Shown here: piece after piece, positions 489 through 30,229 of the stretch
Position numbering within the stretch: position 1 is the first letter of the stretch
Layout: every line of letters begins with the position of its first letter
From: Cenarchaeum sp.
Lineage (GTDB): Archaea > Thermoproteota > Nitrososphaeria > Nitrososphaerales > Nitrosopumilaceae
DNA: 32,000 bases
NCBI GenBank assembly: GCA_965200655.1
Contig: CBDAUQ010000001.1
Location: 150,276-182,275, forward strand
Direction: 5' to 3'
Position numbers and translations under genes: made by a program
The notes under the pieces: generated by a model
The model's input: the letters and a program-made list of their open reading frames with translations, nothing else
The model's database searches: none
Told to the model about the DNA's origin: nothing

Positions 489-3107
<2,619 letters not shown>

Positions 3108-9385: not shown

Positions 9386-9866
9386 CCTCGTCGAACGCGT
9401 CGTCTACGGCGCCGTGGCTGCGGTACATCCGGTCCTTTAGCATGTCCTTTATGTCTTGGAGGCTCTCCCTGTATTCTATGTTCGCGTCGAGCAGCGAGAC
9501 CGCCGCGCACATCCACTCGGCGCTCCTGCCGGACACGAGGTTGAGGAACTCGGCGGCCCTGAACCGGGATGGCATGTCCGGCGCGGCCGCCCTGTACACG
9601 CCGGCGTCCTCGTCGGAGAGCCTGTAGATGCCGTCGGCCATCTCGTCCGAGCACGGCCCGTTGCTGAACGCCGCGAACTCGAACCCCATGTCGTGGCCAT
9701 AGTACAGGGCCAAAAAGGCGCACTGCTCGATCCTGTCGACGACGGCGAGGCCCCCCTCGCCCGCGGGCAGCGGCGGGCCGAACTCGACGACCCCGTTGGC
9801 GGCCAGGAACTTTATGAAGCGGGCCAGCGGCGGCAGCATCTCGGGGCGCGCCTTCATGCCGATCAT
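9345..9866 (-). CDS. Hypothetical protein (weak resemblance to the DUF4065/Panacea-type antitoxin-associated domain)
   Basis: The start is taken at M (9866 or 9857). The segment AVVDRIEQCAFLALYYGHDMGFEFAAFSNGPCSDEMADGIYRL loosely follows the lKLqKLlY...f.aw.yGPvs..ly pattern. It converges on the PIN gene and overlaps it by 41 nt. The family assignment is tentative. Confidence 0.4.
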   Translation of the reverse strand: MIGMKARPEMLPPLARFIKFLAANGVVEFGPPLPAGEGGLAVVDRIEQCAFLALYYGHDMGFEFAAFSNGPCSDEMADGIYRLSDEDAGVYRAAAPDMPSRFRAAEFLNLVSGRSAEWMCAAVSLLDANIEYRESLQDIKDMLKDRMYRSHGAVDDAFDEVKRRGMFRLDRQS

Positions 9867-16013: not shown

Positions 16014-19000
16014 GTGGGCGCCGCGCTGACGGTTGCAGTCATGGCGGCGGCGGCCGTTGCCGCGGCCGCGTCGGGGCTGCCGGCGGCGGCCGCTCAGGTG
16101 GGGGGGACGCCCGCGCCCGCGCCGGTATCTGAACGGCCCGTGTTTGCTTTCGAGTTCAAGCATGGGCTGGTCACCGGCAATTTTTCCAGCATTGGCGGTG
16201 TCGCCTTCGGCCCCGGCGGGATCATGGCCGTGGGCGACTTTCACAAGGACCGCGTCATGGTGTTTCACGCCAACGGCACGCTTGCCTATCAGATCGTATC
16301 GGAGGAGGAGGAGGAGGACCACGACCACGACCACGGCGACGACCACGGCGACGAGTCCGGAGCGCATGAAGAAGAGGAGGAGGACCACGCCGTGTTTGAC
16401 GGCCCTGAAGGCATCGCCTTCGGCCCCGGCGGGATCCTGGCCGTGGCCGGCCGCTGGAACAGCCACGTCCTAGTGTTCCACGCCAACGGCACGCTTGCCT
16501 ATCAGCTGGGATCGGAGGATGACCACGACCACGACCACGACCACGCCCCCGGCGACACTAGTTTTCATCCTGACGATCTTGGCCCCGGCGAGTTTGACGA
16601 ACCTATTGGCGTCGACTTCGGCCCCGGCGGGATCCTAGCCGTGGTCGACTCTGGCGAGGACCGCGTCCAGGTGTTCCACGCCAACGGCACGTTCGCACAT
16701 CATGTCGGAGCGGACAGGTCGGGCGACGACAGGTATGGACTCGCTGTCGACGTCGACTTCGGCCCCGGAGGGATCATGGCCGTGTCTGACTATTACAACG
16801 ACCGCGTCCAGGTGTTCCACGCCAACGGCACGTTCGCACATCATGTCGAAACAGGCCGGTATTCGTTTCCCCGCGTCGTCGCCTTCGGCCCCGGAGGGAT
16901 CATGGCCGTGGCCGGGCACGACAACCGCGTCCGTGTGTTCCACGCCAACGGCACGCTCGACCACCAGTTTGGATCGGGGGGGAGCGGCCCCGGCGAGTTT
17001 AATCTTCCCTCCAGCATCGACTTCGGCCCCGGCGGGATCATAGCCGTGGGCGAGCTGGGCCAATATGGCAAGGCGCGCGTCCAGGTGTTCCACGCCAACG
17101 GCACGTTCGCCTACCAGGTCGGACCGGAGTGGCGGGGAGGCCTCAGCGAGTCTAGTATTCTCTACAGCGAGTTTAGCCTTCCCTACAGCGTCGACTTCGG
17201 CCCCGGAGGGATCATGGCCGTGGCCGACTCTCACAACGACCGCGTCCAGGTGTTCCACGCCAACGGCACGTTCGCCTACCAGATCGGATCGGTGGGCGGC
17301 GCCCAGCCCGGAGAGTTTCGGTATCCTAATGATGTCGCCTTCGGCCCGGGCGGGATCCTGGCCGTGGCCGACGCCGGCAACTACCGCGTCCAGGTGTTCC
17401 ACGCCAACGGCACGCTCGACAAGCAGGTCCAATCGCACGTGGGGTGGTGGGCCGCCCCCGGCGGATCATTTTGGGATCCCGCGGGCGTCGCCGTCGGCCC
17501 CGGCGGGATCCTGGCCGTGGCCTACGGCAACAACCGCGTCCAGGTGTTCCACGCCAACGGCACGCTCGACCACCAGTTCGGATCGGGAGGCAACGGCACC
17601 GGCGAGTTTAACGGCCCTGCCGACGTCGCCGTCGGCCCCGGCGGGATCCTGGCCGTGGCCGACGCCGGCAACAACCGCACCCAGGTGTTCCACGCCAACG
17701 GCACGTTCGCACATCAGTTCGGATCGAACGGATCGGGCCCCGGCGAGCTTTGGCTTCCCCGCGGCGTAGCCTTCGGCCCCGGCGGGGCCATGGCCGTGGC
17801 CGACACTAGCAACAACCGCGTCCAGGTGTTCCACGCCAACGGCACGCTCGACTACCAGTTCGGATCGCGCGGATCGGGCCCCGGCGGGTTCCGTCTGCCC
17901 TACGGCGTAGCCTTCGGCCCCGGCGGGGCCATGGCCGTGGCCGACACTAGCAACAACCGCGTCCAGGTGTTTCAGATGTCGATGCTAGCGCGCGATGCGC
18001 CGGCCGTGGCCGACAGAGCGCTAGCGGCCGCTGAGTACGTCGAGGGGGAGGCGCGCGATGCGCCGGCCGTGGCCGACAGAGCGCTAGCGGCCGCTGAGTA
18101 CGTCGAGGGGGAGGCGCGCGATGCGCCGGCCGTGGCCGACAGAGCGCTAGCGGCCGCTGAGTACGTCGAGGGGGAGGCGCGCGATGCGCCGGCCGTGGCC
18201 GACGGCGCCATCGCGGCCGCTGAGTACGTCGAGGGGGAGGCGCGCGATGCGCCGGCCGTGGCCGACAGAGCGCTAGCGGCCGCTGAGTACGTCGAGGGGG
18301 AGGCGCGCGATGCGCCGGCCGTGGCCGACAGAGCGCTAGCGGCCGCTGAGTACGTCGAGGGGGAGGCGCGCGATGCGCCGGCCGTGGCCGACAGAGCGCT
18401 AGCGGCCGCTGAGTACGTCGAGGGGGAGGCGCGCGATGCGCCGGCCGTGGCCGACAGAGCGCTAGCGGCCGCTGAGTACGTCGAGGGGGAGGCGCGCGAT
18501 GCGCCGGCCGTGGCCGACAGAGCGCTAGCGGCCGCTGAGTACGTCGAGGGGGAGGCGCGCGATGCGCCGGCCGTGGCCGACAGAGCGCTAGCGGCCGCTG
18601 AGTACGTCGAGGGGGAGGCGCGCGATGCGCCGGCCGTGGCCGACGGCGCCATCGCGGCCGCTGAGTACGTCGAGGGGGAGGCGCGCGATGCGCCGGCCGT
18701 GGCCGACGGCGCCATCGCGGCCGCTGAGTACGTCGAGGGGGAGGCGCGCGATGCGCCGGCCGTGGCCGACGGCGCCATCGCGGCCGCTGAGTACGTCGAG
18801 GGGGAGGCGCGCGATGCGCCGGCCGTGGCCGACGGCGCCATCGCGGCCGCTGAGTACGTCGAGGGGGAGGCGCGCGATGCGCCGGCCGTGGCCGACGGAG
18901 CGCTCGCGCAGGCTGGGCGCGACGGCGGGGAGGCGCGCGATGCGCCGGCCGTGGCCGACGGCGCCATCGCGGCCGCTGAGTACGTCGAGGGGGAGGCGCG

Positions 19001-19841
19001 CGATGCGCCGGCCGTGGCCGAGTCGGTCAGTACATCTGATGTCCACGGCACCAGCGGCGACGGCCCGCCGCAGGCGGATCCGGGGACGGGAACGCCCGGC
19101 GACGGCCCGCCGCAGGCGGATCCGGGGACGGGAACGCCCGGCGACGGCCCGCCGCAGGCGGATCCGGGGACGGGAACGCCCGGCAACGGCACCAGCGGCG
19201 ACGGCCCGCCGCAGGCGGATCCGGGGACGGGAACGCCCGGCAACGGCACCAGCGGCGACGGCCCGCCGCAGGCGGATCCGGGGACGGGAACGCCCGGCAA
19301 CGGCACCAGCGGCGGCGACGGCCCGCCGCAGGCGGATCCGGGGACGGGAACGCCCGGCAACGGCACCAGCGGCGACGGCCCGCCGCAGGCGGATCCGGGG
19401 ACGGGAACGCCCGGCAACGGCACCAGCGGCGACGGCCCGCCGCCGCCCGCCGGCCCATTCACATGCTCGGTAAGGCTTGGGTTGGCTGACTTGGAGGTGA
19501 CGGTAGGGCAGGGCGAGTACTCGCGGGCCGTCCGGCAGTATCTAATCAACTCGGGCTCGCTGGCGTTCGCAAGTGTGGGGCTCGATGCGACCCCGTGGCG
19601 GTTCAGTTTTGACGGCGGCTCAAGGGCGGGTGCGGATCTGCCGGCCAGTGTAACCGAGGTGCTCGATCATGCGGCGGGCGGAGGCTATGTGCCGCTTGCG
19701 GACGGGGTGGCCGTTGGCCGCGGGCTCGCGGGCGGGGACGTGTCTCAGCTGTCGTTTCGCGTGAACCTGTCCGCGCATGGCGATGCGCGGGGCATTATGG
19801 CCCAAAACGTGACATATCTAGCCGAGTGTGTTCCGCCGTAG
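16014..19841 (+). CDS. Large secreted NHL-repeat protein (12 blades, so two predicted six-bladed beta-propellers), with two tandem-repeat arrays and an unassigned C-terminal domain
   Basis: The signal-like N-terminus is AALTVAVMAAAAVAAAASGLPAAAAQ. There are twelve repeats of the form G(V/I)(A/D)FGPGGI(L/M)AV.D..N.RVQVFHANGT(L/F). His/Asp/Glu-rich loops are EEEEEDHDHDHGDDHGDESGAHEEEEEDH and EDDHDHDHDHAPGD. These are followed by 16x 21-aa repeats, 7x GDGPPQADPGTGTP repeats, and a ~130-aa C-terminal domain. Confidence 0.85.
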   Translation: MGAALTVAVMAAAAVAAAASGLPAAAAQVGGTPAPAPVSERPVFAFEFKHGLVTGNFSSIGGVAFGPGGIMAVGDFHKDRVMVFHANGTLAYQIVSEEEEEDHDHDHGDDHGDESGAHEEEEEDHAVFDGPEGIAFGPGGILAVAGRWNSHVLVFHANGTLAYQLGSEDDHDHDHDHAPGDTSFHPDDLGPGEFDEPIGVDFGPGGILAVVDSGEDRVQVFHANGTFAHHVGADRSGDDRYGLAVDVDFGPGGIMAVSDYYNDRVQVFHANGTFAHHVETGRYSFPRVVAFGPGGIMAVAGHDNRVRVFHANGTLDHQFGSGGSGPGEFNLPSSIDFGPGGIIAVGELGQYGKARVQVFHANGTFAYQVGPEWRGGLSESSILYSEFSLPYSVDFGPGGIMAVADSHNDRVQVFHANGTFAYQIGSVGGAQPGEFRYPNDVAFGPGGILAVADAGNYRVQVFHANGTLDKQVQSHVGWWAAPGGSFWDPAGVAVGPGGILAVAYGNNRVQVFHANGTLDHQFGSGGNGTGEFNGPADVAVGPGGILAVADAGNNRTQVFHANGTFAHQFGSNGSGPGELWLPRGVAFGPGGAMAVADTSNNRVQVFHANGTLDYQFGSRGSGPGGFRLPYGVAFGPGGAMAVADTSNNRVQVFQMSMLARDAPAVADRALAAAEYVEGEARDAPAVADRALAAAEYVEGEARDAPAVADRALAAAEYVEGEARDAPAVADGAIAAAEYVEGEARDAPAVADRALAAAEYVEGEARDAPAVADRALAAAEYVEGEARDAPAVADRALAAAEYVEGEARDAPAVADRALAAAEYVEGEARDAPAVADRALAAAEYVEGEARDAPAVADRALAAAEYVEGEARDAPAVADGAIAAAEYVEGEARDAPAVADGAIAAAEYVEGEARDAPAVADGAIAAAEYVEGEARDAPAVADGAIAAAEYVEGEARDAPAVADGALAQAGRDGGEARDAPAVADGAIAAAEYVEGEARDAPAVAESVSTSDVHGTSGDGPPQADPGTGTPGDGPPQADPGTGTPGDGPPQADPGTGTPGNGTSGDGPPQADPGTGTPGNGTSGDGPPQADPGTGTPGNGTSGGDGPPQADPGTGTPGNGTSGDGPPQADPGTGTPGNGTSGDGPPPPAGPFTCSVRLGLADLEVTVGQGEYSRAVRQYLINSGSLAFASVGLDATPWRFSFDGGSRAGADLPASVTEVLDHAAGGGYVPLADGVAVGRGLAGGDVSQLSFRVNLSAHGDARGIMAQNVTYLAECVPP
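17988..19020 (+). repeat. 63-bp in-frame tandem array: 16 full units plus one partial unit, near-identical at nucleotide level, with two unit types
   Basis: The unit GCGCGCGATGCGCCGGCCGTGGCCGAC[AGAGCGCTAGCG|GGCGCCATCGCG]GCCGCTGAGTACGTCGAGGGGGAG encodes ARDAPAVAD(RAL|GAI)AAAEYVEGE. Reading R = DRALAAA and G = DGAIAAA, the unit order is R R R G R R R R R R G G G G g* G. The unit g* is a diverged unit (DGALAQAGRDGGE). Confidence 0.95.
19047..19440 (+). repeat. Second in-frame tandem array (42-60-bp units) encoding (GNGTS)GDGPPQADPGTGTP x7
   Basis: The core GGCGACGGCCCGCCGCAGGCGGATCCGGGGACGGGAACGCCCGGC is repeated 7 times, with or without the AACGGCACCAGC spacer. Confidence 0.9.
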
Positions 19842-23552: not shown

Positions 23553-23700
23553 GCCTGGGGGAGGGGAAGGGGGGGGGGGCGGGAACACGGCTACGGACGG
23601 TCGCCCTTCAAAATGCTGGCCATGTCGATCCTGTTACCATGTAAGGCAACATGAGACACGGTGGGCACTGCTGGCGGGGGGGGGGGAGGGGAAGGTGGAG
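23553..23700 (+). repeat. Pair of G-rich motifs sharing an AGGGGAAGG core, each with an 11-nt G homopolymer (23569..23579 and 23676..23686)
   Basis: The motifs are CTGGGGGAGGGGAAGGGGGGGGGGGCGGG and GGCGGGGGGGGGGGAGGGGAAGGTGGAG, about 105 bp apart. They sit immediately outside the right IR of IS element 2 and upstream of the low-GC cassette. Both satisfy a G3+N1-7 x4 quadruplex pattern. Confidence 0.85.
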
Positions 23701-23866
23701 CGGCGCGTCCTAATGCGACCGCATATGACCTAGTCCCTAGCTCGCCCAAGTGAACGACGCTAGGGCTTCCGATAACAATAAAAACGGCCCATGCGCGCCT
23801 GCGCGACATGGTGGGCTTGTACGGTATGGGTGCGCCCGGATTCGGGGGTCGCTAACATTGAGCGAC

Positions 23867-24262
23867 ATGGGAGTGATCGGCACTAACTTGTACCTCGCCA
23901 CAAAACTGCTTGGGCGGTACGACTTGGCTCTAGAGTCCATCAGATCGCGCGGCGGCTCCGTGGACCGCCCAGACGAGGTCAAGAGCATCCTTGCTGTACT
24001 TGACCCGCTCAGCCGCCACCTGCGTGGCATGACCTACTACGCCCTGGGCGTCAACGCCGAAGAAATGTCCAAATTCCTGCGCCTCCGTCACCGCGAAGAT
24101 TGGCCAAGTGCAAAAGACGGCATACTCTCCGTGGCGTCAAGGCTTGAAAAAGGCGGCGGCAAAGTAGCCCTCTCCGGCGGTGACCTGCCGATCTTAAACG
24201 ATGTATCCGACGCTCTTGACAACGAGTGCTCGTCTCTGTTCAAGGAGACGCGTAGGCGATGA
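23867..24262 (+). CDS. Hypothetical protein (131 aa), first gene of a low-GC two-gene cassette
   Basis: ATG 23867 (MGVIGTNLYLATKLLGRYDLALESIRS...) was chosen over the GTG 23750 track start. The protein is predicted mostly helical. No family was recognised. The stop overlaps the start of the next gene (ATGA at 24259..24262). A/T-ending codons are frequent, unlike in core genes. Confidence 0.55.
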   Translation: MGVIGTNLYLATKLLGRYDLALESIRSRGGSVDRPDEVKSILAVLDPLSRHLRGMTYYALGVNAEEMSKFLRLRHREDWPSAKDGILSVASRLEKGGGKVALSGGDLPILNDVSDALDNECSSLFKETRRR

Positions 24263-25437
24263 GCTCCACGTACTTGAGATTCATCATCCGCGAGCAGATT
24301 GACAAGATACGGGTCCTAAAGGACGAAATTCCTTGTCGCCCGGGGCATGCGGCCTTGGATCGCTTGGCCGACACGTGCAAGGGCAGGTTGGAAGAACAGT
24401 CGCTCCTGCTCGGGCAGGCCGGTGCCTTGCTTGACGGCGACAGCAACGGCGCTCGCATCGGCATGGTGCTAAGGGCCGTAAAGCGTTGTGCCAGGGTCGT
24501 AGGCGATATAGAGGGGTACGGCATGCCACCGTTGCACTGCCGGTCAGAGCAGGCGATATTTCTCAACGATGTCGTGTACGCGATGCACAACGAAGTAGGC
24601 CTGCCGTTTCCATGTCCGGCGGTGTCATGCACGTCAAACGAGTATTATTTTACGCACCCTGTCACCAACACCGTGTACGTCCCGCTTTCAGAGGCCGCGT
24701 TCTTGTTGCACATGCCAGACTTTTATCACGAGTTGGGCCACCTCCTACTTGCTCACTCCTACGAGACGGAGTGGATCCCTATATTAGCCGGCATGGCCGA
24801 TGCAGTCGAGGCTATTGACGACTACTATCTGCAACATACGCTGAGGATGAAGAGCGAGTCGGCGCCCACACCTGTCCAGGATGGCGTGAAGTGGATGTGG
24901 TCTAGGTGGAAGCACGTTTGGATTCAGGAGGCGTTTTGTGACCTTTTCGCCCTGTTTGCGGCTGGGCCCGCATACGCGTACTCCAACCTACACTTGGTGT
25001 CCAAGATGGACCTGAACATATATGAGCTTAGTCTACTGGCTGAGCAGGATCACCCTTCCGGTGAGGCTAGGATGCGGTTGCTTGACGCCGGGATGCATCT
25101 CCTTGAGCACGAGCGCGAGGCAGGGCATGTCAGGGAAGAGTGGAACGCGTTAGCACATTTTTGCGGTGATCCTCCACCAGAATACGCCCACGCTTTTCCG
25201 TCCGGCTTGATCCGCGAGGTTGCCGCGTCCATACTTCCAGCGTTCGGGAAGGCGGGCCTGCGCGGACACGCAAGCGGAGACGGAGCGGCCGTTGCCGCCC
25301 TTCTGAACGATGCTTGGCGAGGCTTTTGGCGCGATGGGGGCGGCGGCTTTCGGGATCTGGAAAATACGCTGATTTCCAAGCTTGCGGAGGTGGTGCATAG
25401 CGGCGCCGCGGCATGCCAGAAGCGGGCGCCGGACTAG
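24259..25437 (+). CDS. Predicted gluzincin-type zinc metallopeptidase-like protein (HExxH ... E), family unassigned
   Basis: HELGH lies at aa 157-161 (nt 24727..24741). The downstream segment W-K-H-V-W-I-Q-E-A-F-C-D-L-F-A-L-F-A-A-G-P (E224, nt 24928..24930) resembles the WLNEGFA third-ligand helix of MA-clan peptidases. The N-terminal ~150 aa are unassigned. GC is lower and codon usage is atypical for the window. Confidence 0.6.
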   Translation: MSSTYLRFIIREQIDKIRVLKDEIPCRPGHAALDRLADTCKGRLEEQSLLLGQAGALLDGDSNGARIGMVLRAVKRCARVVGDIEGYGMPPLHCRSEQAIFLNDVVYAMHNEVGLPFPCPAVSCTSNEYYFTHPVTNTVYVPLSEAAFLLHMPDFYHELGHLLLAHSYETEWIPILAGMADAVEAIDDYYLQHTLRMKSESAPTPVQDGVKWMWSRWKHVWIQEAFCDLFALFAAGPAYAYSNLHLVSKMDLNIYELSLLAEQDHPSGEARMRLLDAGMHLLEHEREAGHVREEWNALAHFCGDPPPEYAHAFPSGLIREVAASILPAFGKAGLRGHASGDGAAVAALLNDAWRGFWRDGGGGFRDLENTLISKLAEVVHSGAAACQKRAPD

Positions 25438-25560
25438 CACTTCCTTGCCGGCCGGCCGCCGGCCCGCGGTAGGCCGCCACCTGTTGCGCTCGCCGCGCCC
25501 CGGCCGCGGCTGGGCCTGCACCCGTCAATCTTTTTAAGCGCGCCCCCGGCGGCGCGCGCC

Positions 25561-26917: not shown

Positions 26918-27274
26918 CTACCGGAATGGTATTTCTTTCTCGATCCTGTCTAGCACTTCGGCGGCATGCTTGCGCTGGGAGTCGCTTACCCTGAACCCCT
27001 CACAGTATCGCGCCCGCATGCTCATCAGGTAGAGGCTTTTGTAGTCCTTGCGCACTTGGGGCAGTTCCTGCTCGACCATCTCCTTTCTTTCGAAGTGGTT
27101 CTTGGGGGATTGCCCGGTTCGCACGGCGAGCCAATAGTTGATCTTGTGCAGTGCAGAGTAAAAGATCATGGTTACCTTCCAGTCGGCCAGATCGTCGTGA
27201 TTTGCATCAAGGCGCTCATAGACGCGCCTGTTGTACTCGCTCTGCTGCCTGAACCACTCCGTCTCCCTGCTCAT
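26918..27274 (-). CDS. HEPN-like all-helical protein (putative toxin component), tentative
   Basis: The 118-aa sequence carries DWKVTMIFYSALHKINYWLAVRTGQSPKNHFERKEMV...LYLMSMRARY. This follows the general HEPN helix layout (aromatic-rich helix, a ..G..pk.H.. turn, and a C-terminal R..Y). It has a 4-nt ATGA overlap with the upstream gene and A/T-rich codon usage. The assignment is by pattern only. Confidence 0.4.
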   Translation of the reverse strand: MSRETEWFRQQSEYNRRVYERLDANHDDLADWKVTMIFYSALHKINYWLAVRTGQSPKNHFERKEMVEQELPQVRKDYKSLYLMSMRARYCEGFRVSDSQRKHAAEVLDRIEKEIPFR

Positions 27275-29796: not shown

Positions 29797-30229
29797 GCTA
29801 CCGCGCCGGATGCAGGTAATAATAACCTAGGCGGCGGCCCCCGCCGGCGGCATGCGCGGATCCCTGCCCCGTGCGGACGGGCGCTGGCAGCGGCCGCGCC
29901 CCGCACTGCCACCCCCCACATGAGCGCGGCGCCGGTTGCGCGGGGCCGCCGCCGGCCCGCGCGATCGGGCGCCTGGCGCCTGTCGGCCCCGATGCCGTGC
30001 CCGGAACAGGGCCGCCGCCGGCCCGCGGCCGGGGCGCCGCGCAGGGCGCCCTGGGCGGCGATGCGCGGCGCCTGCGCACGGGCGCCCAGCCCGCCTGCGC
30101 CCGCCCAGGCCAATCCGGCACCCCGCCTGCGGAGGGGGGGGGGGGCGGAGGAGACGGGCGGGCGCCGCCGCGCCGCCGCCGGGATCTTTGCCCGCCGCCC
30201 CTTAGACTTATAGGCGCCCCGTATTTGCA

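Follow-up and report, generated by a model that had tools for sequence, protein, structure and literature searches.

A coupled gene pair of low GC content

We analysed a 32-kb stretch of the Cenarchaeum sp. contig CBDAUQ010000001.1 (positions 150,276 to 182,275; the whole stretch is called the window here), in which an islet of low GC content holds two adjacent genes that we call SMALL and LARGE. Both genes are on the forward strand and overlap by the four letters ATGA at 24259-24262, as had been described in an earlier reading made from the sequence alone. The coordinates given there stand, except that the start of SMALL is most likely a TTG codon.

23858..24262, forward strand: SMALL, TTG start, 134 aa (131 aa if the ATG at 23867 is used)
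24259..25437, forward strand: LARGE, an open reading frame (ORF) of 392 aa

The reading frame of SMALL is open from the GTG at 23750 to its end at 24262, with ATG 23867 as the shorter start, and the source annotations give a product of 131 aa in one case and of 134 aa in another. We favour TTG 23858 because the product then begins with MSDMG, which agrees with the family N-terminus MSxxGL. In addition, the pattern NTG-AGC-G.C-ATG at this place is common to all eight copies of the stand-alone clade described below. Judged from these sequences, SMALL most likely starts at TTG 23858.

The segment 23750-25437 has a GC content of 58.6%, compared with a mean of 70.4% (standard deviation 3.9) for segments of the same size across the 32 kb. 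It ranks fifth lowest among 607 such segments, the minimum being the one that begins at 23701. The GC content at third codon positions (GC3) is 0.69 in both SMALL and LARGE versus 0.83-0.94 in the neighbouring genes with Pfam support, namely those for the EgtD-like methyltransferase, the IS66 transposase, the NHL-repeat protein, the multicopper oxidase and the radical-SAM protein. The foreign composition noticed in the sequence-only reading is hence borne out by both measures. Both gene products are soluble and acidic to neutral, and hydrophobic segments are not evident in them.

That reading had also recognised no family for SMALL, and neither LARGE nor SMALL has a match in Pfam, NCBIfam, PADLOC or PHROGs. 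When the window pair and its orthologues from locus L004 were compared with PADLOC-DB 2.0, only chance-level GajB matches were found (E 0.008-0.02), and a profile search of the PDB sequences with LARGE gave coiled-coil noise alone. The family itself is large. We found 134 homologues of LARGE by a word-indexed search, while an exhaustive HMMER scan gave 1,966 cluster representatives at E<=1e-3, including 331 at E<=1e-30. We aligned 72 members with 27-67% identity, and 19 columns of this alignment are invariant, all of which are kept in the window copy. They include H157, E158, H161, E224, F226, D228, G236-P237-A238 and H265, and several of these residues lie in three short motifs.

24727..24741, forward strand: HELGH (HExxH), aa 157-161 of LARGE, in a predicted helix (153-165); H157, E158 and H161 invariant in the 72 sequences
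24928..24942, forward strand: EAFCD (ExxxD), aa 224-228 of LARGE, in a predicted helix (204-235); E224, F226 and D228 invariant
25048..25077, forward strand: DHPSGEARMR of LARGE; H265 invariant, P266, R271 and M272 near-invariant

The AlphaFold2 model of LARGE is mostly helical, with a predicted local distance difference test score (pLDDT) of 95.6 and a predicted template modelling score of 0.93. Four N-terminal helices come first, and a sheet of three strands (121-140) leads into the HExxH helix (153-165). An inserted helix separates the latter from the E224 helix (204-235), and the C-terminal half is helical. The Foldseek searches of the PDB and BFVD with this model gave no significant neighbour; all that they returned, below significance, was a local match with selecase, a minigluzincin, and weak ones with ZMPSTE24. 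The pattern of conservation makes E224 a candidate third zinc ligand and D228 a candidate for the Asp that orients a His, and H265 is a candidate for a His that stabilises the transition state. The HELGH motif and the downstream Glu helix pointed out in the sequence-only reading are thus confirmed as an invariant HExxH...ExxxD arrangement. The spacing of 63 residues between the HExxH and the Glu, taken there to be unusual, is not so, because the known gluzincin spacings cover such a range: it is ~59 residues in neprilysin and ~76 in ZMPSTE24. The EAxxD pattern is likewise found in thermolysin, angiotensin-converting enzyme (ACE) and neprilysin. The motifs and the model lead us to predict that LARGE is a zinc metallopeptidase belonging to an as yet unnamed family.

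SMALL has 111 homologues, none of which carries a family annotation. Its AlphaFold2 model consists of five helices (pLDDT 91.5) and has no significant fold match in the PDB by Foldseek. Invariant columns are almost lacking, as there is none among 30 diverse members and only L117 among 66. We considered HEPN for SMALL and rejected it: the top Foldseek matches are at E 0.26-0.8 and the conserved Rx4-6H motif is absent. Because of the near-zero number of invariant residues and the lack of a significant fold match, we read SMALL as a non-catalytic partner and propose that it is an adaptor or regulator.

Homologues at the 3' end of Argonaute operons

The genomic context of the homologues was studied in 80 genome loci, of which 79 could be evaluated, and in several metagenome loci, all annotated with purpose-built hidden Markov models (HMMs). 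In 74 of the 79 loci the pair forms the 3' end of a same-strand array, which encodes a helix-turn-helix (HTH) protein, a PD-(D/E)XK nuclease, a prokaryotic Argonaute (pAgo) of ~800 aa, SMALL and LARGE in this order. The junctions between pAgo, SMALL and LARGE are usually overlaps of 4 bp. SMALL lies directly 5' of LARGE in nearly all loci that have an intact LARGE, mostly with the 4-bp overlap, although a few rows were left unscored by the automatic gap test in this count. Both genes are present in all related loci that we examined, and the suggestion that they form a conserved unit is confirmed. The five-gene loci cover more than 12 phyla; the bacterial ones belong to Bacteroidota, Acidobacteriota, Chloroflexota, Planctomycetota, Cyanobacteriota, Pseudomonadota, Verrucomicrobiota, Latescibacterota and others, and the operon is also found in several archaeal lineages. 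Cultured hosts among the matches are Pedobacter yonginense KCTC 22721, Algoriphagus pacificus, Roseivirga seohaensis, Spirosoma endophyticum, Calothrix PCC 7103 and Lacibacter MH-610.

The Argonaute of these operons matches the PADLOC model pAgo_II (E 1e-242 and 3e-302), and the solved structure closest to it is 7R8F, which is PliAgo (E 9e-120). The nuclease matches the PADLOC model Aga_Cas4-like_Nuc (E 8e-94). The HTH gene opens nearly all operons, and the one HTH protein tested, from L004, resembles CapH (PADLOC E 3e-12). Other defence genes are often among the neighbours of the loci: GmrSD, a type I restriction-modification (R-M) system and nSTAND near L004, and a reverse transcriptase, a Zeta toxin and an HNH protein near L006. 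Two of the stand-alone loci, L001 and L003, are near restriction genes (type ISP R-M and REase_II-like, respectively). The sequence-only reading had proposed an undescribed defence-type cassette; the defence context of the relatives agrees with it, but instead of a new cassette on its own the pair is the 3' half of a PliAgo-type operon.

Gene fusions were observed at both members of the pair. A single ORF covers pAgo and SMALL in two Acidobacteriota and one Planctomycetota (L046 7209-10001, L069 7209-9980 and L082 6909-9710; 923-933 aa), and these ORFs look like natural pAgo-SMALL fusions. LARGE carries a C-terminal CHAT domain, which is caspase-like, in P0119 (L005 6001-7872) and in P0278; the same fusion is weaker in P0301, where the E-value of 2.4e-4 is below the Pfam cut-off. 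Together with the reordered Dehalococcoidia operons, which keep all five components, and the nearby defence genes, the two kinds of fusion connect the pair in function with Argonaute and with proteolysis. A 609-aa homologue of LARGE, from 9992 onward in L080, was grouped with the carriers of the C-terminal CHAT domain, and L077 encodes a LARGE of 755 aa with an extension that has no match to any Pfam domain.

The arrangement varies in some lineages. In the Dehalococcoidia loci L067, L083 and L086 the order is HTH-pAgo-SMALL-LARGE-PD-(D/E)XK nuclease, with the nuclease gene shifted downstream. We looked for a universal sixth gene 3' of LARGE and discarded the idea, since the downstream genes vary: they encode IlvD, a PIF1 helicase, a subtilase, R-M methylases or, in Dehalococcoidia, the PD-(D/E)XK nuclease. 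A related gene of ~400 aa follows LARGE in the Pedobacter/Mucilaginibacter loci L027, L047 and L058, and its L027 copy is a subtilase (Peptidase_S8). In a viral contig of IMG/VR (L090 7048-8417) we observed a 134-aa ORF that overlaps by 4 bp the gene of a 322-aa protein, two genes 5' of the terminase large subunit. The 322-aa protein carries the core HEMGH...EEIFCDLFA...GPAY and reaches an hhalign probability of 97.5% to the LARGE profile, and the 134-aa partner has no detectable relation to SMALL.

Three bacterial loci have lost the middle of the operon. Only HTH, SMALL and LARGE remain in L023 and L062, from which pAgo and the nuclease are gone. The third, L068, is an HTH-SMALL-LARGE locus with a 66-aa ORF (9399-9599) that has matches both to the N-terminal end of the Cas4-like nuclease and to the pAgo C-terminus; this chimera looks like a scar left by a clean deletion inside the operon. 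The three loci are independent bacterial deletions and represent the same process as at the window locus.

A stand-alone clade with a relic of Argonaute

The window pair belongs to a monophyletic clade of stand-alone pairs, which comprises the window, L091, L001/L002, L003, L008, L009, L088 and L089. The genomes of this apparently archaeal clade have 67-70% GC, the best-named relative is a Cenarchaeum sp. metagenome-assembled genome, and L001/L002 carry the archaeal genes for LSM and ribosomal L37e. In a neighbour-joining tree without support values, the sister group of the stand-alone clade is pAgo-linked and mainly archaeal, and includes Nitrososphaerales, Archaeoglobus and Bathyarchaeia. 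No HTH gene was detected by HMM at E<=0.01 in the window or the other stand-alone loci, and the tblastn matches are at chance level (E>=0.15).

The islet in the window keeps the 3' end of the lost Argonaute gene directly before SMALL, together with two further elements.

23754..23855, forward strand: relic of the pAgo C-terminus, 33 codons reading TTLGLPITIKTAHARLRDMVGLYGMGAPGFGGR and then TAA, ending 2 nt before the SMALL start
23777..23784, forward strand: AT-rich box AATAAAAA, inside the relic and ~75 nt 5' of the SMALL start, coinciding with the I-K codons of the relic
23844..23848, forward strand: GGGGG, 10-14 nt 5' of the TTG start; a G run is present in all eight stand-alone copies

The relic frame (23754-23852) aligns with the C-terminal ~30 residues of the most closely related pAgos (..SRLPITxKMNDIRLREIAGEY..). 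Four pAgo queries from the archaeal clade each match 23766-23846 by tblastn, with E-values of 0.019-0.64. We also searched with a 50-column HMM of the pAgo C-terminus in six frames, and its best match is the window relic (domain E 5.5e-4). The next-best matches are located 33-51 nt 5' of SMALL in L003, L089 and L008 (twice there), followed by a weaker one 48 nt 5' of SMALL in L001. In total, the relic precedes SMALL in the window and five further copies of the clade. At L003 and L008 its frame ends in a stop codon that shares 4 nt with the SMALL start, which is also the arrangement of intact pAgo-SMALL junctions. Although the scores are weak individually, the relic is convincing because position, strand and frame coincide repeatedly. 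The pair in the window thus descends from an Argonaute operon.

The core (A/T)TAAAA of the AT-rich box is kept in seven of the eight stand-alone copies, in GC-rich DNA and despite synonymous divergence (dS) above 1; L009 has TTATAA. We take AATAAAAA as a candidate TATA element of archaeal type that would serve the pair, and the GGGGG at 23844-23848 as a candidate Shine-Dalgarno-like site. The relic may still be recognisable at dS>1 because these TATA-like and Shine-Dalgarno-like elements are kept there, the promoter role being our inference. On this sequence evidence, the 3' end of the deleted pAgo gene seems to have been kept as a promoter.

The ratio of nonsynonymous to synonymous substitution rates (dN/dS) within the clade is 0.18-0.34 for LARGE and 0.19-0.64 for SMALL, with dS near saturation, and more than 60 distinct 90%-identity clusters were found at identity levels typical of the clade. 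The substitution pattern indicates that both genes are under purifying selection. The stand-alone pair is most likely functional, because the invariant residues of LARGE are intact, dN/dS is low and the clusters exceed 60. The neighbourhood of the pair is different at each stand-alone locus, and its GC content is below that of the flanks in all seven stand-alone loci measured. The low GC and the varying neighbourhoods therefore fit an accessory, laterally moving gene set. Orphan SMALL genes and tandem pieces made of SMALL plus the N-terminal part of LARGE (its first ~55 codons) are also seen in the clade, at L008 8354-11256, L088 2578-3704 and 6843-7346, and L001 10022-10513. These partial duplications resemble orphan-cassette arrays.

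Around the pair, the window contains several other features. The sequence-only reading had placed a decaying IS66-like element at 21.5-23.5 kb. The ORF there has no Pfam match even at E<=1, its BLASTP comparison with the true IS66 transposase (489-3107) gives a non-significant E of 0.32, and no fitting inverted repeat was found; the element is not confirmed. The two G11 tracts mentioned together with it are real (23569-23579 and 23676-23686) and separate the upstream ORF from the islet of low GC, and a third tract of the G11-G12 class is at 30134-30145. Downstream of the pair, CTTTTTAAGC is found at 25530-25539, ~25 nt 5' of the GTG start (25561) of the EgtD-like gene; it is compatible with an archaeal TATA box of a leaderless EgtD-like transcript, or with a T-run terminator of the pair. 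Just past the EgtD-like gene there is a second low-GC gene pair on the reverse strand (26918-27274 and 27271-27570/27771, GC 55-64%), which encodes products of 118 aa and about 100 aa with a 4-bp overlap and recurs in L091. Searches with it gave no significant match in Pfam and none in PADLOC or PHROGs, and the pair may be another small accessory or toxin-antitoxin (TA)-like module. The 1,275-aa NHL-repeat protein gene (16014-19841) holds 17 tandem units of 63 bp at 17862-19169, and the IS66-family transposase gene contains a long run of GAGCCC (Glu-Pro) repeats at 2204-2743. The Rfam and tRNA scans of the 32 kb gave no matches.

Possible roles of the pair and comparison with known systems

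We lean, with moderate confidence, towards regarding the pair as an adaptor-controlled zinc peptidase effector that was inherited from an Argonaute defence system. The module arose as the 3' half of an operon for an XRE-type HTH protein, a Cas4-like nuclease, a PliAgo-type Argonaute, SMALL and LARGE. The upstream genes were then deleted in a high-GC lineage, apparently of Cenarchaeum-like Nitrososphaeria, leaving ~30 codons of the pAgo C-terminus, and the TATA-like box in this relic probably drives the pair as a transcription unit of its own. SMALL is expected to bind LARGE, and in the ancestral operon it may dock LARGE onto the Argonaute, so that recognition of foreign nucleic acid would license the proteolysis of a protein target as an immune effector or signalling step. 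In the stand-alone form SMALL might regulate LARGE or sense for it, either alone or with an Argonaute encoded elsewhere.

Several observations weigh against such a role. HMM and tblastn searches found no Argonaute, nuclease or HTH gene in the 32-kb window apart from the pAgo relic. The genes adjoining the pair, for the EgtD-like methyltransferase and the radical-SAM protein, are not defence genes. Pfam comparisons of the 72 LARGE members gave noise, with only two of them touching Peptidase_M48 at E 0.05. Moreover, the PliAgo-type Argonautes are active nucleases, as stated in the parts of Lisitskaya 2022 (PMC9360449) that deal with them, and a separate effector is not obviously needed.

The layout of the pair could also be that of an autonomous toxin-antitoxin or immunity-like module, in which LARGE would be a toxic protease and SMALL its neutraliser, while the link to Argonaute would be secondary, as an addiction or abortive-infection add-on. 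A small upstream gene that overlaps its partner by 4 bp and is inherited with it is the arrangement of type II TA systems, and SMALL evolves faster than LARGE with near-zero invariant residues. The variable genomic contexts and the low GC of the pair are what one would expect of such a module, and the orphan SMALL genes and truncated N-terminal pieces of LARGE (L001, L008 8354-10004 and L088) are like orphan immunity arrays, although this likeness is only suggestive. But it is to Argonaute that SMALL is fused in three loci, and not to LARGE; no TA or PADLOC model is matched; and the bacterial pair almost never occurs without the Argonaute operon, which is unexpected for a freely mobile TA module. 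We consider this explanation unlikely, and it partly overlaps the effector reading, as SMALL could be an inhibitory adaptor. Still less probable is a protease of the ImmA/ImmR or CapP/CapH type, where LARGE would cleave the XRE-family HTH repressor and so switch on the operon when stress or infection is signalled. The HTH gene is indeed first in nearly all operons, its L004 product is CapH-like, and HTH-SMALL-LARGE is what the bacterial losses of pAgo and nuclease leave (L023, L062 and L068). However, the window and all stand-alone archaeal loci have no HTH gene, yet the pair is under purifying selection there, and the HTH gene may persist in the bacterial loci simply as a promoter-proximal regulator. 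The role of SMALL is left unexplained by this hypothesis, and none of the 72 LARGE members matches Peptidase_M78/ImmA. The ImmA/IrrE-like logic put forward in the sequence-only reading is not supported, given the missing Peptidase_M78 matches and the lack of an HTH partner in the window.

LARGE might not be a peptidase at all, its metal site serving another hydrolase activity or a structural purpose in assisting the Argonaute, e.g. in guide or target handling. The lack of a sequence or fold match to any peptidase family speaks for this possibility, as does the nuclease activity that the partner Argonaute itself already has, its known helper class consisting of nucleases. We nevertheless find it improbable, to the same degree as the cleavage of the repressor, since an HExxH followed by an EAxxD on a later helix, after a small beta-sheet, is the canonical gluzincin layout, and the recurrent LARGE-CHAT fusion suggests a proteolytic theme. 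The loss of the upstream genes, with a relic alone left, and the truncated copies at related loci could finally mean that the pair is a decaying, non-functional remnant of a destroyed Argonaute operon. This is very hard to reconcile with two intact ORFs, with all 19 invariant residues of LARGE being present, with dN/dS well under 1 across copies whose dS is around 1 or more, with the conserved promoter-like and Shine-Dalgarno-like elements upstream, and with more than 60 distinct 90%-identity clusters at clade-typical identity. We keep the adaptor-controlled peptidase as our working model.

What is new here is a conserved and unstudied arm of a known Argonaute system, found in the window in a derived, stand-alone form. 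SMALL and LARGE equal the Argonaute in their conservation within the operon, fusions with it exist in some genomes, and the two genes are able to persist without it. Prior published text, in the parts that concern these systems, treats only the Argonaute itself and, in a different clade, the nuclease of Cas4-like type. Our data define two protein families, with ~2,000 cluster representatives for LARGE, which are currently missed by the defence-system annotators. The strict metallopeptidase signature and the linkage to Argonaute give a testable hypothesis of a pathway from Argonaute to protease. Operon decay, too, is cleanly illustrated by this locus: the deleted gene has left its 3' end in place, and this end apparently supplies a promoter. 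RNA-targeting Argonautes of the PliAgo type are in tool development, and their natural function is described as unknown in the relevant part of Lisitskaya 2022 (PMC9360449).

Among the known systems, the PliAgo operons are the nearest. The PliAgo-group Argonautes are active DNA-guided RNA nucleases, and their conserved operon also encodes a Cas4-related nuclease and an HTH regulator, according to the sections of Lisitskaya et al. 2022 (PMC9360449) on this group. Homologues of SMALL and LARGE are located directly 3' of pAgo in these operons and the window retains the pAgo C-terminus relic, but the window differs in having no pAgo, nuclease or HTH genes. The non-cyanobacterial Argonaute/Cas4-like systems were named APACE2 and left uncharacterised, as stated in the corresponding part of Bobadilla Ugarte et al. 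2025 (PMC12094033). The PliAgo-group 'D-R' long-A operons with SMALL and LARGE probably are this APACE2 class, where the ACE2 assignment of the operon nuclease is by length (311-325 aa) and PADLOC model rather than by a tree. The portions of PMC9360449 and PMC12094033 that treat these operons cover the nuclease and the regulator alone and do not discuss SMALL or LARGE, and our literature search found no characterisation of SMALL/LARGE, no Argonaute-associated metalloprotease and no follow-up of APACE2. The section of Table S3 of Ryazansky 2018 on long-A operons gives '2, 60, 98' (HTH, Cas4, unknown), where og_98 may correspond to SMALL or LARGE.

Other Argonaute systems with separate effectors are more distant. 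In SPARTA, SPARSA and SPARDA and in the long-B systems BPAN, BPAS and BPAM (Song 2023, PMC10620215), the Argonautes are catalytically dead and the effectors are NADases, nucleases or membrane proteins. The short-pAgo APAZ and long-B systems resemble the operons studied here in having an Argonaute with a separately encoded effector and an adaptor domain that is sometimes fused to pAgo. They differ in that the ancestral Argonaute here is an active, RNA-cleaving one, the candidate effector is a metallopeptidase, and SMALL is unrelated to APAZ. We rejected an identity with the long-B BPAN, BPAS or BPAM systems, which use a RecB2 (og_15) nuclease and inactive Argonautes, the Argonaute here being PliAgo-like.

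As for peptidases, LARGE shares with the thermolysin, neprilysin and ACE gluzincins of the MA clan, as judged from motifs and model, an HExxH helix, a later EAxxD helix, a preceding beta-sheet and an extra conserved His. Unlike them, it has no HMM or significant Foldseek match, and it has a 115-residue N-terminal region of four helices and a distinct helical C-terminal half. The helical oligopeptidases are larger than LARGE with its 392 aa. ImmA, IrrE and CapP (Peptidase_M78) are similar in the HExxH and in their mobile or defence context, and the bacterial LARGE operons start with an XRE/CapH-like HTH gene. None of the 72 LARGE members, however, matches PF06114 at E<=1, the window has no HTH gene, two large genes separate the HTH gene and LARGE in the operons, and the obligatory small partner is foreign to ImmA and CapP.

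In the type III-E CRISPR Craspase, gRAMP/Cas7-11 works with the TPR-CHAT protease Csx29, which cleaves Csx30. Craspase and CalpL/CalpT/CalpS are alike in concept, combining a guide-directed sensor, a protease and a small non-catalytic partner, and LARGE is in some cases fused to CHAT, and SMALL to Argonaute. We speculate that the PliAgo-type Argonaute could be the sensor for a protease arm, as an Argonaute counterpart of Craspase, and that this arm was later freed in sponge-associated Nitrososphaeria; we regard this as possible but rather doubtful. SMALL would then tether LARGE, sometimes extended by CHAT, to the Argonaute, and guide-directed recognition of RNA would trigger site-specific proteolysis. 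The freed arm might have taken its promoter from the 3' end of pAgo and diversified into a conflict module that is present in multiple copies and triggered independently. The activation by target binding is purely hypothetical for SMALL and LARGE, and the likeness to Craspase and CalpL involves no relation in sequence or fold: their proteases are caspase-like or Lon, while LARGE is zinc metallopeptidase-like.

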